64,000 bases of DNA from Nostoc sp. DedSLP01 (lineage in GTDB: Bacteria > Cyanobacteriota > Cyanobacteriia > Cyanobacteriales > Nostocaceae): positions 64,001-128,000 of the forward strand of contig JAVRCJ020000005.1 in assembly GCA_034530875.2 (NCBI GenBank). The letters run 5' to 3'. The notes beneath the pieces are model-generated. The model had not been told where the DNA came from. It saw only the letters and a list, made by a program, of their open reading frames with translations, and ran no database searches. Position 1 is the first letter of the stretch. The number at the start of each line of letters is the position of its first letter. Below, one piece after another: positions 18,339 to 23,541 of the stretch. The position numbers were made by a program, and so were the translations under genes.

Positions 18339-18392
18339 GTAGAATATTCAGAATTCAGAATTCAGAATTCTGACTCCTGAATTTTGTTAAAT

Positions 18393-18992
18393 TTATTGAG
18401 AAATGCCACTGGCTAAAATACCAAGAATTTTATTTACGTCTTTGAGATAATATTCACTTAAATCAATAGTTAGTGTTTGTTTTTCTAGTTTGAGAAATTG
18501 CCAAATACTGCCTGTTGTGACTGCGCCGTAAATTGTTTTAATCTCAGTTGCAGCTTGCTGGTTAAAAATTTGTGCTGCTACCATTTCTGCCGCACACTGA
18601 CCCAAACCTGCATTAATATTTTCTTTTTTAGCTTCTACAACTGTAATTACTGGTGCTGTCAAAATGAGAATTTCTGGAGATTTTGTAATAATAAAATCGC
18701 AAGTGCCATTTAATCCTTTGGCATTATCAACAGTAAAATCTACCCCAGAAAATAAACTAACTTGCTCGTGTAATTGTCGGCGCAAGTCAACTAAAATGGG
18801 AGCAATGATTAACTCAGAACGGGCTTTTTCACTATTACTACCTAAAGCGATCGCCAGGTTATAATTAAGTGTTTCTACAAGTAAATTACTTGCTGCTAAA
18901 TCAGGAACAGCAGCGAAAATATCGCGTTTTTCTAATGTGGTTAAGCTAAACTCTTGTTTTGCTTTAGCTAAACTAAAGTCGCTATAAGACAT
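18393..18992 (-). CDS. Cyanobacterial PD-(D/E)xK-fold protein (SEKARSE...CDF...VVEAK family)
   Basis: MSYSDFSL start; SEKARSELIIAPIL, GTCDFII, VVEAKKENINAGLGQCAAEM, GAVTTGSIWQFL. Confidence 0.8.
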   Translation of the reverse strand: MSYSDFSLAKAKQEFSLTTLEKRDIFAAVPDLAASNLLVETLNYNLAIALGSNSEKARSELIIAPILVDLRRQLHEQVSLFSGVDFTVDNAKGLNGTCDFIITKSPEILILTAPVITVVEAKKENINAGLGQCAAEMVAAQIFNQQAATEIKTIYGAVTTGSIWQFLKLEKQTLTIDLSEYYLKDVNKILGILASGISQ

Positions 18993-19038
18993 AAAACTAC
19001 TACTCTTTTTTGTAATTTCATAACTTAAGAAATAAAAT

Positions 19039-19070
19039 GTAGGTTGGGTTAAGCAAAGCGCAACCCAACA
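19039..19070. repeat. REP-like GTAG palindrome
   Basis: gtaggttgggttaagcaaagcgcaacccaaca. Confidence 0.65.
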
Positions 19071-19078
19071 CAAAACTA

Positions 19079-19420
19079 TCATTTTGTCTGGGAAATATTC
19101 TCAATTTGAGTTATCTGACCCAGAGATACTTTTAAAGCTAAGATGGGTAAGGCGGTAGCTGCAATCAGAACAGCAGTAGCTAAGATAATTGCAACTGGTT
19201 TCCCGCCAGATTGAACTAAGACCTTAAAAATGTTTTCTGCTGTCTGACCCCCAGCTTGAACTAATTCCACTGTATCTGATTTGCTCAAAGCAGCAGTAAT
19301 ATTTTCAGCAATATCCAGAAGTTGTTCTGTATTGTTTGATTGGTTCAGAACATCTAGAGATTTATTTATTGGCTGTTGCTGTGGGTGTAAATTTTCGTTT
19401 TCCGGATAGTAAGTAGACAT
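19079..19420 (-). CDS. Small hypothetical membrane protein
   Basis: 113 aa; polar N-terminus, single C-terminal hydrophobic helix after SGGKP; AGAGGAG RBS upstream. Confidence 0.75.
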   Translation of the reverse strand: MSTYYPENENLHPQQQPINKSLDVLNQSNNTEQLLDIAENITAALSKSDTVELVQAGGQTAENIFKVLVQSGGKPVAIILATAVLIAATALPILALKVSLGQITQIENISQTK

Positions 19421-19478
19421 CGTTTTGCACTCCTCTGTTGTTGGGATGTCTCTATACTCGCCTGTAGTCCATAGTTAT

Positions 19479-19553
19479 ACGTAGGATGTAGGTAAATGTA
19501 GGATCATGCCATAAATACAAAGAATATCTACATAGACGTAGGATTATGTAGGT
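19479..19553. promoter_or_regulatory. Phased GTAGG repeats in a divergent promoter region (putative operator)
   Basis: GTAGG at 19481, 19488, 19498, 19538, 19548. Confidence 0.5.
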
Positions 19554-19618
19554 TTTGCTGTAAAATACTGAACTTATATCCAGGTGTTAACTCCACTTTA
19601 CCAACTCAATCAGGTTAA

Positions 19619-20725
19619 ATGAAAGCTGAAGAAGCATTAGAGTCTATTAAGCAAATATTTGAGGAAAGAAAAGGAAAAGTAGTATCCCTGAGTAAATTAG
19701 AACAAAAAGTTTTTCTACTAAGTTGGGAAGGTATGAACTATGGTCAAATGCCTTCTAAAATAGATAAGCCTAATCCTACTACCAAACCATATACAGAACA
19801 GTATTTAAAAGAAATAGGCAAAAGTTTAATTGATAAGATTAAAAAAATTTTGAATTTAGACGATATTGATAAAAGAAATTTTAGGGAAGAAATTGAAAAT
19901 TTTTTGGTTAGAAATTACAACCAGCATACTCAAAAATTCCCTCGTATTACTCCGCTCAATTCAGACTATACTGCCCCTCAAGAGCTACCTAATAATAGTT
20001 CATCTGAGCAAAATCACAATCCCTTCATTCCTTTGACTGCCAGAGTAGAAGAAAAGTATCTATTTTTTGACCGAGAGTGCGAAATCCGGCGAATATTTGA
20101 GGTACTGAATAGCGGTAGTAGTGTCGTTTTGATTGGTGAAGAGGGAATTGGAAAATCCTCGCTGCTATGGATGATTTCCCAAGAAGCAGAAAGTCGTCTC
20201 AATGTTCAACGTCAGCCAGTTTTCTTAGACCTGAATTTACTTCATAATGAAAGTCAATTTTATAGTAATTTGTGCCACGAGATTGGTATGCCCGAAAGTC
20301 AAGACTACCAGTTAACCCGCAATTTGCGAAATCGTAAAATACTACTGGCTATAGATAATCTAGGAAAACTAAACAGGGAAGGTTTTACTCGCAACATAAG
20401 AGATTATTTGCGCGGTTTCGCTGAAGGAAGTAATGCTCCGTTGAAGCTGATTTTAGCTGCTACGGAACCTCTGAATAATCTTTTTAAGGATAGTCAGGAG
20501 CAAGGTAATACTTCTCCTTTAGCGGGTATTTGCCAAGAGGAACACATTTATCCTTGGGATGAAGCTACTATGCGCGCTTTTATTACCAACCGTTTGGCTA
20601 ACACTTCTGTGAGTTTTACTCAGGAACAAATTATCCAACTCATTCAAGAAAGTGGCGGACATCCTCGCAAACTGATGCAATTGTGTTATCGAACTTATTC
20701 CCGGTATGTGGAGAGTTTGCAATGA
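19619..20725 (+). CDS. N-terminal HTH-like domain plus STAND/AAA-type ATPase
   Basis: LSKLEQKVFLLSWEGMNYGQM...YLKEIGKSL...KRNFR (wHTH-like); NPF; Walker A GEEGIGKSS; Walker B LLAIDN; SGGHP motif. Confidence 0.8.
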   Translation: MKAEEALESIKQIFEERKGKVVSLSKLEQKVFLLSWEGMNYGQMPSKIDKPNPTTKPYTEQYLKEIGKSLIDKIKKILNLDDIDKRNFREEIENFLVRNYNQHTQKFPRITPLNSDYTAPQELPNNSSSEQNHNPFIPLTARVEEKYLFFDRECEIRRIFEVLNSGSSVVLIGEEGIGKSSLLWMISQEAESRLNVQRQPVFLDLNLLHNESQFYSNLCHEIGMPESQDYQLTRNLRNRKILLAIDNLGKLNREGFTRNIRDYLRGFAEGSNAPLKLILAATEPLNNLFKDSQEQGNTSPLAGICQEEHIYPWDEATMRAFITNRLANTSVSFTQEQIIQLIQESGGHPRKLMQLCYRTYSRYVESLQ

Positions 20726-20738
20726 TGGAGACAGAATA

Positions 20739-23360
20739 ATGACTCCTGTACCCCGCTTAGACTTAAAACCCAAGTTAAAGCGTTCCCTGTCTGTGTGGAA
20801 TCCCTTGGATTATCTGCGCCTTTTGTACTGGGTGTTTTTCTTTCCCCAAGCTTTGCGGTGGTATGTCGATGAGTTCGGAGGTGGGTATATTTCTGAAGAA
20901 GAAATGAATTGGCGAAAAGGATGGGAGTTATTGCGTCAAAATGCTATCCAACGCCAGTTAGTTTTTCAAGGATTATTTTTAACAGTAATTACACCTGTTG
21001 CTATAGGCTTTATTTTTCAAGCTCTAAATGTTCCCGTTAACTGGTTCTATGTAGCGGTAAGCGTAGTGGGAAGCATCGTGGTAGGTGTGGCGGGAGGCGT
21101 GGCGGGAGGCGTGGTATTCGGCGTGGCGGGAGGCGTGGCATTCGGCGTGGCGGGAGGTGTGGCATTCGGCGTGGTGTTCGGCGTGGCGGGAGGCGTGGTG
21201 CTCGGCGTCACAGTAGGCGTGACAGTAGGTGTGGCGGGAGGTGTGGTGAGAAAGGTGGCATTCGGCGTGGCATTCTGCATGGCGGTAGGCGTGGCATTCG
21301 GCGTGGCATTAGGCGTGGCATTCGGTGTGGCATTCGGTGTGGCGGTAGGCATGGCGTTACTGCGTCCAGAAACCTGGCTTATTGGCTCACCTTTAAACTT
21401 ACGAATTATTCAAAACGATAGTTGGCTACTCCCCCGCATCACTCCGCTTCCTCTTCCTAATCTTGTCTGGCGCTTAGAAAATTGGTTGCAAAATGATTGG
21501 GAAATAGGTTTACATAATATCAATGAACTACTCGCATATACCTTACAATTCATTCCTGTTATCCAAGCACTCAACAGAGTACTTGCCAAAATCCCCTCAG
21601 AGGAAATTATTTGGAATGTCTCTCGTCTAGCGGCAGATCCTTTTGATTGGAATATAGTACGTTTTGCTTCAGCTTCTTTAGATGAAACTTTAAAGTTAAG
21701 GTTTATCAAAGGTTTCTTCTCCTTCCCCTTGTTCCTTTTCTTCCCTCGTTCTTGGGGAGAAGGTTTACAGACTCCTTTTAACACAGACACTCGCTTAGAT
21801 ACTTTCGCCCATGCTGCTGCTGCTGGTTTCTGGCATCTGCACGAAAAAGAACCAGCCAGAGCAATAGAGGCTTTTGCTGTAGTGCGTTCTCTTCTCTATG
21901 GCGAGGAAATGTATACCCTTGCCCAAACTCTAGCAGCGTTTCAGAACGCTCAAAAACCAGCCTCCATTGCTGCTATCCAAGTTCCTACTTTTCCACAGAA
22001 ACTGCTTTTACGTCCAGATACCTGGGAAGTTCTAGCTCATCTGCGTCGAGTTGTTGAAGATGTCCAGTTTGTTAACCGCAGCGTCTCACGTTCAGCCAGG
22101 TCTTTAGCTCTCAATCGAGCATTAGGCGAACTGACAAAAATCCTAAATCAAGCCAACACCTTGCCGCAAGCAGAGCAAGGGTTAATCATAGATATCGCTC
22201 AAACTTGGAAAGAAAGCCTTTTACAAATCGCTGGTGAAGTGGGAGAAATTTCCATCACCAAACCTGTGGTTAATCCTTATGTTGTAGGCGACCCCGTTCA
22301 AGGTCATCTCTTTGTTGGGCGAGAAGATATCATCAGACAGTTAGAAGAACTCTGGCTGATGGGTAACCAACTCCAGTCTGTAGTTCTCTACGGTCACAGG
22401 CGTATGGGCAAAACTTCTATTCTGCTTAACGTTGCTAACCGTCTAGGCTCACAGATACAGCTAGCATACGTCAACTTGCTACGTTTGGGAGATAGTCCCC
22501 AAGGTGTCGGTGAGGTGCTGATGGCAATTTGTGATGAAATTTCTCAAACTGTAAAACTTCCACCGCCAGCTGATGCTGATTTATTAAATCTTCCCTACCG
22601 GACTTTTGAGCGTTATTTAAAACAGGTGGAAGCAAAGCTAGAGGGTGGGTTAATCATCGCCTTAGACGAGTTCGAGAAGATTGAAGATTTAATAGAAGCC
22701 AAAAAAATCCCTATGGATTTTATGGGTTTTCTGCGGGGGTTGGTGCAAATGAGTTCTAAAATCGCCTTTGCCTTTGCTGGTTTGCACACCTTGGAGGAAA
22801 TGACAGCAGATTATTTTCAACCTTTCTTTGCCAGCGTCATTCCTATTCATGTTGGCTTTCAAGAACGTGCAGCTACTCGCCAAATTCTGGCGAACCCAGG
22901 TAATGAAGACTTCCCCCTCGACTACATCCCAGAAGCTTTAGATGAAATTTATGCTTTGACACATGGTCAACCATATTTAGTGCAACTCGTGGGTTTTCAG
23001 CTGGTGCGCCGCTACAATGACTTTGTTTTTGAGCAAGGGCGACCTCGTGACCCAGTTTTCACAATACAAGATGTGGAAGCAGTTATCAATGACCCTGAGT
23101 TTTTCCAGCGAGGACGCTACTACTTTGATGGGGTTTGGGGTCAGGCGGCGCGGGGTGCTGAGGGTCAACAGGCAATTGTACGAGTACTTGCACCTCATCC
23201 AGAGGGGCTAAGTCTGGATGCCTTAGCTCAGTCTACAGGGATGAATGACGCTGATTTAGAAAAAGCGTTGAATACTTTGAAGCGTCATGATGTCGTTGAG
23301 GAAACTCAGGGAAAATGGCGGATTATGGTAGAACTGTTTCGCCGCTGGGTTTTACGGTAG
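20739..23360 (+). CDS. Multi-TM glycine-repeat protein with C-terminal STAND/AAA ATPase and wHTH
   Basis: (GVAF/GVAG)n hydrophobic repeats; NPYVVGDPV..FVGRE; Walker A GHRRMGKTS; Walker B IIALDEFE; THGQPYLVQL; ATG at 20739 has a GGAG RBS. Confidence 0.82.
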   Translation: MTPVPRLDLKPKLKRSLSVWNPLDYLRLLYWVFFFPQALRWYVDEFGGGYISEEEMNWRKGWELLRQNAIQRQLVFQGLFLTVITPVAIGFIFQALNVPVNWFYVAVSVVGSIVVGVAGGVAGGVVFGVAGGVAFGVAGGVAFGVVFGVAGGVVLGVTVGVTVGVAGGVVRKVAFGVAFCMAVGVAFGVALGVAFGVAFGVAVGMALLRPETWLIGSPLNLRIIQNDSWLLPRITPLPLPNLVWRLENWLQNDWEIGLHNINELLAYTLQFIPVIQALNRVLAKIPSEEIIWNVSRLAADPFDWNIVRFASASLDETLKLRFIKGFFSFPLFLFFPRSWGEGLQTPFNTDTRLDTFAHAAAAGFWHLHEKEPARAIEAFAVVRSLLYGEEMYTLAQTLAAFQNAQKPASIAAIQVPTFPQKLLLRPDTWEVLAHLRRVVEDVQFVNRSVSRSARSLALNRALGELTKILNQANTLPQAEQGLIIDIAQTWKESLLQIAGEVGEISITKPVVNPYVVGDPVQGHLFVGREDIIRQLEELWLMGNQLQSVVLYGHRRMGKTSILLNVANRLGSQIQLAYVNLLRLGDSPQGVGEVLMAICDEISQTVKLPPPADADLLNLPYRTFERYLKQVEAKLEGGLIIALDEFEKIEDLIEAKKIPMDFMGFLRGLVQMSSKIAFAFAGLHTLEEMTADYFQPFFASVIPIHVGFQERAATRQILANPGNEDFPLDYIPEALDEIYALTHGQPYLVQLVGFQLVRRYNDFVFEQGRPRDPVFTIQDVEAVINDPEFFQRGRYYFDGVWGQAARGAEGQQAIVRVLAPHPEGLSLDALAQSTGMNDADLEKALNTLKRHDVVEETQGKWRIMVELFRRWVLR
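21083..21352 (+). repeat. In-frame 12-nt tandem repeats (ggcgtggcattc / ggcgtggcggga)
   Basis: About 22 degenerate GC-rich units encoding GVAF/GVAG. Confidence 0.9.
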
Positions 23361-23431
23361 GAGGACAATAGACCAATACGGTTCGGTTAAGATAAGAGAC
23401 AGCGATTTATCGCGTCTTTGTGACTATCTAG

Positions 23432-23523
23432 GCGATCGCATTTACTATTTCGGCGACAGCATTTACTATTTCAGCGATCGCATTTACTATTTCGGCGACA
23501 GCATTTACTATTTTTGCGATCGC
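23432..23523. repeat. 21-bp tandem repeat built on HIP1
   Basis: gcgatcgcatttactatttcg / gcgacagcatttactatttca alternating, 4 units plus a terminal gcgatcgc. Confidence 0.9.
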
Positions 23524-23541
23524 AAAAGCTATCCTAACAAC

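Follow-up and report, generated by a model that had tools for sequence, protein, structure and literature searches.

The stretch analyzed here (the window, 64,000 nucleotides of Nostoc sp. DedSLP01) contains a block in which the gene for a 113-residue putative membrane protein lies head-to-head with two tandem genes for STAND-type ATPases, here called ATPase 1 and ATPase 2, across a gap carrying five copies of the motif GTAGG. Our preferred reading, which we place somewhat above even, is that the two ATPases form a split STAND transcription switch, consisting of a membrane sensor and a DNA-binding helper, that acts on the small gene via these boxes. ATPase 2 would be the sensor, predicted to be anchored in the membrane, and ATPase 1 the helper, predicted to bind DNA through a helix-turn-helix (HTH) domain and to co-oligomerize with ATPase 2 upon activation. 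The hetero-oligomer would present several HTH domains to boxes spaced by one helical turn (10 nt) and, once bound, would likely turn on the divergent small gene rather than repress it; the ATPase operon would presumably regulate itself as well. A preliminary description of the block, which had missed the five boxes, took it for a candidate undescribed system, and its interpretation is partly supported: the library searches gave no match to a characterized system, and the literature searches, in which subscription journals were thinly covered, returned no account of such a cassette, of the boxes, or of the small-protein family.

Boxes in the divergent gap and the exchange of modules

The block consists of the small-protein gene (open reading frame (ORF) of 113 aa at 19079..19420, minus strand), a 198-bp gap (19421..19618), the ATPase 1 gene (ORF of 368 aa at 19619..20725, plus strand) and, 13 nt further on, the ATPase 2 gene (ORF of 873 aa at 20739..23360, plus strand). 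The head-to-head order and the 13-nt spacing given in the preliminary description agree with the ORFs if ATPase 2 starts at ATG 20739; the alternative in-frame ATG at 20706 would give a protein of 884 aa and a 20-nt overlap with ATPase 1.

The divergent gap has a conserved multi-box architecture in aligned relatives. Its boxes, all on the plus strand, fall into two clusters. Cluster 1 (19481..19502) comprises GTAGG at 19481, 19488, and 19498, the last two spaced by 10 nt, and is a candidate operator by the promoter of the small gene; cluster 2 (19538..19552) comprises GTAGG at 19538 and 19548, also 10 nt apart, and is a candidate operator by the promoter of the ATPase operon. Candidate −10 hexamers, picked after the fact, are a weak GAGTAT for the small gene (19454..19459, minus strand, 21 nt from the first box) and TAAAAT for the ATPase operon (19561..19566, plus strand); a scan of the gap for sigma-70 consensus promoters gave one site, the same as in shuffled sequences. 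None of 3000 shuffles gave any 5-mer with at least three G/C at five copies. Five same-strand copies of GTAGG are found in only 2 of 4958 upstream regions of the window's own genome, and the double-pair arrangement occurs once in its 8.6 Mb. In 15 aligned regions chosen by the analyst, box columns are 89% identical versus 58% for spacer columns, and the invariant columns lie almost solely in or beside the boxes. Spacings between boxes in 14 dereplicated regions peak at 10 nt (15 pairs), 37 nt (7), and 27 nt (4). The boxes are not tandem repeats, as divergent spacers lie between them, and the 10-nt period is kept across genera. In three related loci, probably as the result of one event, CTAGG replaces GTAGG at four to five boxes with the layout unchanged; no residue explaining the choice between GTAGG and CTAGG was found.

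Across relatives, the two ATPases stay together. Among the best 80 of 207 loci from the ATPase 1 alignment, ATPase 2 lies directly downstream of ATPase 1 in 74, and five of the other six are cut by contig ends (at most 218 nt downstream). The N-terminus of ATPase 1 is of the window's HTH type in 55 of the 80, an unrelated second-class domain in 7, a LuxR domain in 1, and a caspase-like CHAT protease domain in 14 (13 before a correction that added L121); four loci were unassigned in the first count, and two of the HTH class lack upstream sequence, leaving 53 of that class to be assessed. In 45 of these 53, at least three GTAGG are present within 260 nt. The seven loci with the second-class domain have no GTAGG, and six of them have two to three copies of CCGGAA/TTCCGG instead. 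The TTCCG/CGGAA palindromes stay with this domain in several genera, both on NB-ARC proteins (the window's own genome included) and on the ATPase 1 core. A third domain class, found on NB-ARC and NACHT genes, is accompanied by at least two AAGTAGAA-type repeats in 11 of 12 cases. All 14 loci with a CHAT N-terminus lack GTAGG, and they lack a gene for the small protein or for the ~180-aa protein described below. All N-terminal classes retain ATPase 2 and its winged helix, so what the motif tracks is the ATPase 1 N-terminus and not ATPase 2. This tracking of the repeats with the N-terminal domain lends indirect support to control of the small gene by the HTH-bearing ATPase 1.

The divergent gene is exchanged as well. 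A gene for the small protein or the 180-aa protein lies divergently in 49 of the 53 HTH-class loci; two more have one further away, and one has a weak match. The preliminary description had envisaged a three-gene system, of which the ATPase pair stands, whereas the small protein is not a fixed component: it is the minority form at the orthologous locus, and in 40 of the 53 the unrelated ~180-aa protein takes its place. One relative shares 89% identity with the window in the ATPase core but 37% in the HTH, and its divergent gene is unrelated. In a quick tree of 69 cores, from which broken and partial rows were dropped, the N-terminal types are interspersed, and the CHAT N-termini require at least three changes on well-supported branches. 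The interspersed types and the contrast between 89% and 37% identity indicate that the front end of the operon has been exchanged on a constant core. The divergent gene, the boxes, and the N-terminal domain are swapped as modules on the ATPase core.

Several further arrangements were seen. The 180-aa protein (L024:5103-5645 and relatives) is unnamed, has an N-terminal hydrophobic segment and conserved cysteines, and is present in 14 of 24 same-genus genomes, the window's own (G000), G013, and G017 not being among them; a search of the ESM Atlas (score 0.96) probably places it in an unnamed cyanobacterial cluster of its own. Two further unrelated genes lie divergent from second-class ATPase 1 (L125:3363-3743, 126 aa with an N-terminal hydrophobic segment, and L129:3541-3888, 115 aa). 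The window's own genome has a second ATPase pair with Gly repeats, whose first gene lacks the N-terminal HTH (L035:6745-10262; contig C5, ~260.7-264.3 kb), and in another paralogous pair, which is split into several ORFs, the first gene starts with a caspase domain and the second is preceded by WD40 repeats (L034:6891-14024).

The two ATPases and the small-protein family

Both proteins have the P-loop domain with Walker A and B motifs, followed by a helical domain with a GxP motif, of STAND-type ATPases; the winged helix expected behind the helical domain is present in ATPase 2 only. In ATPase 1, this part (20018..20725, plus strand) passes the Pfam cut-offs for nSTAND1 (28.5 bits; cut-off 27.1) and AAA_22, and the motifs read GEEGIGKSS, LLAIDNLG, and GGHP. 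Its best fold matches are Orc1/Cdc6 (Z 18.0) and the archaeal PAB2304 (Z 16.2), ahead of ZAR1 and MalT. In the structural model, ATPase 1 ends after the helical domain, with no winged helix and no sensor. The N-terminal ~105 residues form a confident four-helix domain (predicted local distance difference test (pLDDT) 82-95), followed by a disordered linker. This domain (19619..19933, plus strand), exchangeable in homologues, is assigned as GerE/LuxR-like from profile and model and corresponds to PF26355, which we take to be HTH_VMAP-M9. A profile of the domain alone, built without LuxR-type N-termini to avoid circularity, matched GerE weakly (E 0.005), and 14 of its 16 PDB matches (to E 10) are LuxR/NarL-type response-regulator or GerE chains. 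The HTH-like N-terminus noticed in the preliminary description is thus borne out as LuxR/GerE-like, if by a weak match. The degenerate Walker B motif reported there is likewise present: among 120 close homologues, the motif has D-N in 118, D-T in one, and D-E in none, with one unparsed, while a more distant orthologue (G015) has DE. The D-N pair suggests that hydrolysis by ATPase 1 is weak and perhaps absent.

ATPase 2 comprises, according to Pfam, motifs, and model, a hydrophobic N-terminus, a helical region, the NTPase domain, and a C-terminal winged helix. It passes the Pfam cut-off for ATPase_2, and its motifs are intact (GHRRMGKTS, ALDEFE, and GQP), the first being kept in 117 of 119 homologues. 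The C-terminal residues 805-870 resemble winged helices (Z ~10), as the preliminary description had supposed. Its count of about 22 GVAF/GVAG repeats needs amending: the repeat block is real, with 20 G-x-x-x tetrads by pattern and 23.1 copies of a 12-nt unit (21080..21356, plus strand), but strictly only 12 of the tetrads are GVAF or GVAG. This Gly-zipper region, our candidate membrane sensor, varies in length and sequence between well-conserved flanks. Measured between fixed anchors, its length is 188 residues in the window and 92-266 in 31 of the 33 loci that were parsed; two further values near 430 are probably mis-parsed.

The 113-aa protein contains the motifs quoted in the preliminary description and one hydrophobic stretch from residue 76 (Kyte-Doolittle 2.6). 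A profile of 16 members defines a cyanobacterial family of 137 clusters at 50% identity, nearly all of 42-139 aa, with a polar N-terminal tail, a G-x-x-P-x-x-IILA motif that opens the single hydrophobic segment, and usually a basic C-terminal tail. An independent profile of 135 of these 137 clusters matches the 113-aa ORF in return (E 3.5e-9). The set gave no convincing match in Pfam and no NCBIfam or PHROGs family; when PHROGs was searched for a holin or other phage membrane protein, one of the 16 members weakly matched one unnamed PHROG (E 0.009). A search of the ESM Atlas returned just unnamed cyanobacterial clusters (score 0.80-0.82), which we treat as a lead.

The preliminary description had suggested surveying cyanobacteria for such small genes divergent from HTH-ATPase genes, and the arrangement proved to recur. 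Three overlapping genome searches (151, 81, and 251 genomes) yielded 46 distinct places outside the window's own genome, of which four without an intact small ORF (L055, L155, L176, and L177) were left out. In 40 of the remaining 42, the small-protein gene directly faces an HTH-type gene, and 37 of these facing genes have a Walker A motif (NB-ARC, NACHT, or ATPase 1 type); in the two exceptions another gene intervenes. In the window's own genome, three of four family members face such a gene. Most members lie opposite single NB-ARC or NACHT genes. The partner N-termini belong to several classes, each with its own upstream repeat, and Pfam names Cro/Xre and EAD4 among them.

The proposal for the small protein's role starts from the CHAT loci, where the presence of a caspase-like protease on ATPase 1 coincides with the absence of both the boxes and the divergent gene; the small protein is on this ground read as an effector. 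An HTH plus a divergent gene and a fused protease look like alternative outputs of one sensor pair. The small protein would most likely be an envelope-acting effector of stress, death, or alarm, although this is the weakest step of our reading.

Other members and partners show the range of the arrangement. Two small genes of the window's own genome are divergent from an NB-ARC protein (L041, C13:135389-139546, APAF1-like/TPR) and an NB-ARC/TPR protein (L042, C47:25100-27867), each with a distinct N-terminal domain and distinct repeats, and a fourth, divergent member is found at C63:12955-13215. At L043 (C14:72052-73420), a 79-aa gene and the gene for a GerE-HTH protein that lacks an ATPase diverge from a stretch with TACGC repeats, and this is the same cassette logic without a STAND. 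Partners starting with EAD4 occur at L049:948-1277 and L149:979-1308 (Pfam E 7e-27 and 9e-29), and L165 is alike by eye; all three loci have GGGTA/CTACC repeats of their own upstream, and EAD4 may be a DNA-binding winged helix. At L057:842-1288, a NACHT gene and a small-protein gene are separated by a gene for a 148-aa protein with a G/N/Q-rich C-terminus, Bell/BASS-like by eye.

Two convergent ABC permease genes enclose the block, as the preliminary description stated. Permease B is within reach in 42 of 69 loci, so the usual site lies between housekeeping permease genes. The neighboring gene for a PD-(D/E)xK nuclease fold (18393..19082, minus strand), also mentioned there, was recovered by PADLOC (E 4e-55), and its homologues start ~30 codons later. 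We reject it as a core part and regard it as a multi-copy passenger, with 12 tblastn matches in the window's own genome and presence in only 22 of the 69 loci that have at least 2.5 kb upstream. Short repeat elements that occur in multiple copies lie on both sides of the block (19034-19070, 18346-18370, and 23423-23524) and are possible recombination sites for module exchange. Neither ATPase matched anything in the plasmid collection. Contigs from an RNA library of a relative (~89% identity; share 0.05) cover the permease, the small gene, the gap, and the first half of ATPase 1; they are uninformative on expression and strand.

Objections and alternative explanations

A number of observations weigh against the split switch. 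The window's own N-terminal domain had no HTH match in the Pfam copy searched, which lacks PF26355, and the GerE match of the domain profile is the weak one given above. The Gly-repeat region is modelled as low-confidence helices (pLDDT 26-43, residues 141-220), so that membrane insertion of ATPase 2 is only predicted. One locus (L098) has ATPase 1 and no ATPase 2 within 3.3 kb, and in the relative's RNA-library contigs the match stops inside ATPase 1 and leaves ATPase 2 uncovered. Eight of the 53 HTH-class loci have fewer than three boxes in the 260 nt, several of them with insertions there. Three partner classes of the small-protein family ('MSxWQTF', 'MEWxxFL', and 'MAASIRAS') have no convincing Pfam HTH match and were labelled HTH-type from position and appearance; the C63 family member has no divergent partner (no ORF of at least 70 aa in ~1.1 kb upstream); and no small-protein gene was seen at four paralogous pairs with a Cro-like N-terminus (L036 and L038-L040). 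Eight other proteins of the same HTH family in the window's own genome lack GTAGG arrays, as does L162, the sole NB-ARC partner with the window's HTH class. These nine cases indicate that the motif is specific to a subfamily, and the eight own-genome relatives led us to reject the idea that the HTH family as a whole recognizes GTAGG; a genome-wide GTAGG regulon was rejected too. Proteins of this HTH family on contigs C53, C19, C9, and C76 adjoin AAA_35-like ATPase genes (by eye) without GTAGG arrays, and one at C27:54621-56999 has GTCGG-like repeats upstream in place of GTAGG.

The best-surviving competitor, which we consider unlikely but serious, reverses the logic: ATPase 1 would repress the divergent gene and its own operon until it is released by a signal from ATPase 2, or the small protein would be no effector and would instead feed back on the STAND as a membrane tether or inhibitor, as MalK does on MalT. 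Box cluster 2 closely precedes the candidate −10 of the ATPase operon, a position that suits repression, as does the presence among the partner domains of Cro/Xre types, which are commonly repressors. The pairing of the small-protein family with STANDs of different classes is what one would expect of a general regulator. A specific inhibitor, however, is hard to reconcile with its replacement by the unrelated ~180-aa protein at most HTH-class loci, and one partner of the small protein (L154) is no ATPase at all. The candidate −10 of the small gene, chosen after the fact, is weak, as at activator-dependent promoters.

We find it improbable that the pair is instead an anti-phage or cell-death system working at the protein level, in which the HTH and the boxes merely set the system's own expression and the divergent gene is co-regulated cargo. 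Homologues do carry caspase-like CHAT domains or WD40 repeats, and rapid module swapping together with repeat variation would suit an arms race; moreover, the literature counts STANDs bearing EADs and caspases among the conflict systems of multicellular bacteria (PMC7159879, PMC8195603). Yet the HTH-bearing ATPase 1 has no enzymatic effector, and the usual site lies between housekeeping permease genes. A PADLOC search, which the preliminary description had also suggested, named no system, the matches of the ATPases in PADLOC and NCBIfam being weak and confined to the P-loop; among 43 neighbor proteins scanned, the PADLOC matches are mostly to generic multi-copy families.

Least of all do we credit the idea that the boxes have no function, being short repeats of a kind common in Nostoc DNA that are carried along with the adjacent gene start, while the head-to-head order is historical: short tandem repeats are indeed abundant near the block (18346-18370 and 23423-23524), promoter and HTH are adjacent and would co-move by recombination even without function, as linked DNA does, and many surveyed loci are close kin and not independent, but the boxes are non-tandem, with divergent spacers and a 10-nt period that holds across genera, every domain class comes with a motif of its own, the double-pair arrangement is unique in the genome, and the conservation is concentrated in the boxes and their edges, this last being the sole counter to hitchhiking by linkage.

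Beyond the split switch itself, we put forward, tentatively and at less than even confidence, a general 'NLR-to-transcription' grammar of filamentous cyanobacteria. A portable cassette, made up of a divergent small membrane-protein gene, operator repeats, and a cognate DNA-binding domain (at least six domain classes, EAD4 included), would be placed on NB-ARC, NACHT, or paired STAND sensors and would turn detection into the production of a so far undescribed membrane protein, an effector of cell death or of alarm in the filament. Under this grammar, the window's locus would represent the version built on a sensor/helper pair, in which the membrane sensor is a hypervariable Gly-zipper. Many NLR-like proteins in cyanobacterial genomes have an HTH-type N-terminus and targets that are not known; the locus and its relatives offer a candidate target and candidate operator boxes for each domain class, together with natural controls in the form of swapped domains, CHAT versions, and the CTAGG variant. 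If the proposal is true, this would be a bacterial sensor/helper STAND pair with a transcriptional output, more than 100 clusters of small membrane proteins would be likely outputs, and EAD4, described as a protein adaptor, would seem to bind DNA.

Comparison with known systems

Membership in Avs or another named anti-phage STAND group was rejected, as the best matches reach 20-24 bits in the P-loop only, against NCBIfam cut-offs of 370-790; a C-terminal repeat sensor was found in neither ATPase by Pfam scan. The iSTAND/VMAP systems with their EAD adaptors (Kaur 2020, PMC7159879) resemble the window's locus in being built on cyanobacterial STAND-like proteins with exchangeable N-termini, and EAD4 is found on some small-protein partners. 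PF26355 on ATPase 1 adds to the likeness, whereas ATPase 1 differs in keeping its Walker A motif. We saw no MoxR or vWA gene in the block, where the two permease genes leave no room for one (MoxR and vWA profiles were not run on related loci), and membership in the iSTAND/VMAP ternary system was rejected on this ground. EADs are treated as homotypic protein adaptors in that work (PMC7159879), whereas the EAD4 loci of the small-protein family have DNA repeats of their own upstream.

Bell/BASS effector-NLR pairs are collinear in 91.3% of cases and share an amyloid motif (bioRxiv 10.1101/2020.01.06.895854). They are similar in that a small gene, proposed to encode an effector, lies next to an NLR-like gene in filamentous bacteria, but the window's genes are divergent instead of collinear, for which reason membership was rejected, and are linked by DNA repeats. 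In a BLAST set containing both ATPases as well, orthologues of the small protein matched nothing but the small protein; no amyloid predictor was applied.

By Pfam (nSTAND1 and ATPase_2) and by fold (2qen and 2fna), both ATPases resemble the MNS-clade STANDs, nSTAND1, PAB2304, and SSO1545. A family of the MNS clade, Npun2340/2341 (Leipe 2004), reportedly consists of adjacent gene pairs, and the window's pair may belong to it. The family name appears in PMC8195603, and the texts consulted mention no divergent gene, operator repeats, or transcriptional output for these ATPases.

Sensor/helper NLR pairs, such as NAIP-NLRC4 and the paired plant NLRs, are formed by two linked STAND genes, one variable and one with an output domain. 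The same holds for the window's pair, with the differences that the variable region is N-terminal and predicted to lie in the membrane, that the predicted output is transcription, and that the hetero-oligomer is itself a prediction.

The precedent for the split switch is MalT of E. coli, whose DNA-binding domain is of the LuxR type and whose sites are spaced direct repeats. Oligomerization lets this STAND bind cooperatively at multiple promoter sites, and a second ATPase, MalK, keeps it at the membrane (PMC10427625). As in MalT and AfsR, a STAND ATPase is coupled to a DNA-binding domain, here recognized by the weak GerE match, and the gap shows a pattern of repeated sites at which binding is predicted. 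The differences are that the HTH of the window's protein is N-terminal and exchangeable, that ATPase 1 has neither sensor nor winged helix, and that the double-pair site exists at one genome locus. Membership in the MalT/AfsR family was rejected because sensor, NTPase, and DNA-binding domain are not joined in one polypeptide: ATPase 1 comprises HTH and NTPase, and the variable region is carried by a second STAND-type ATPase.

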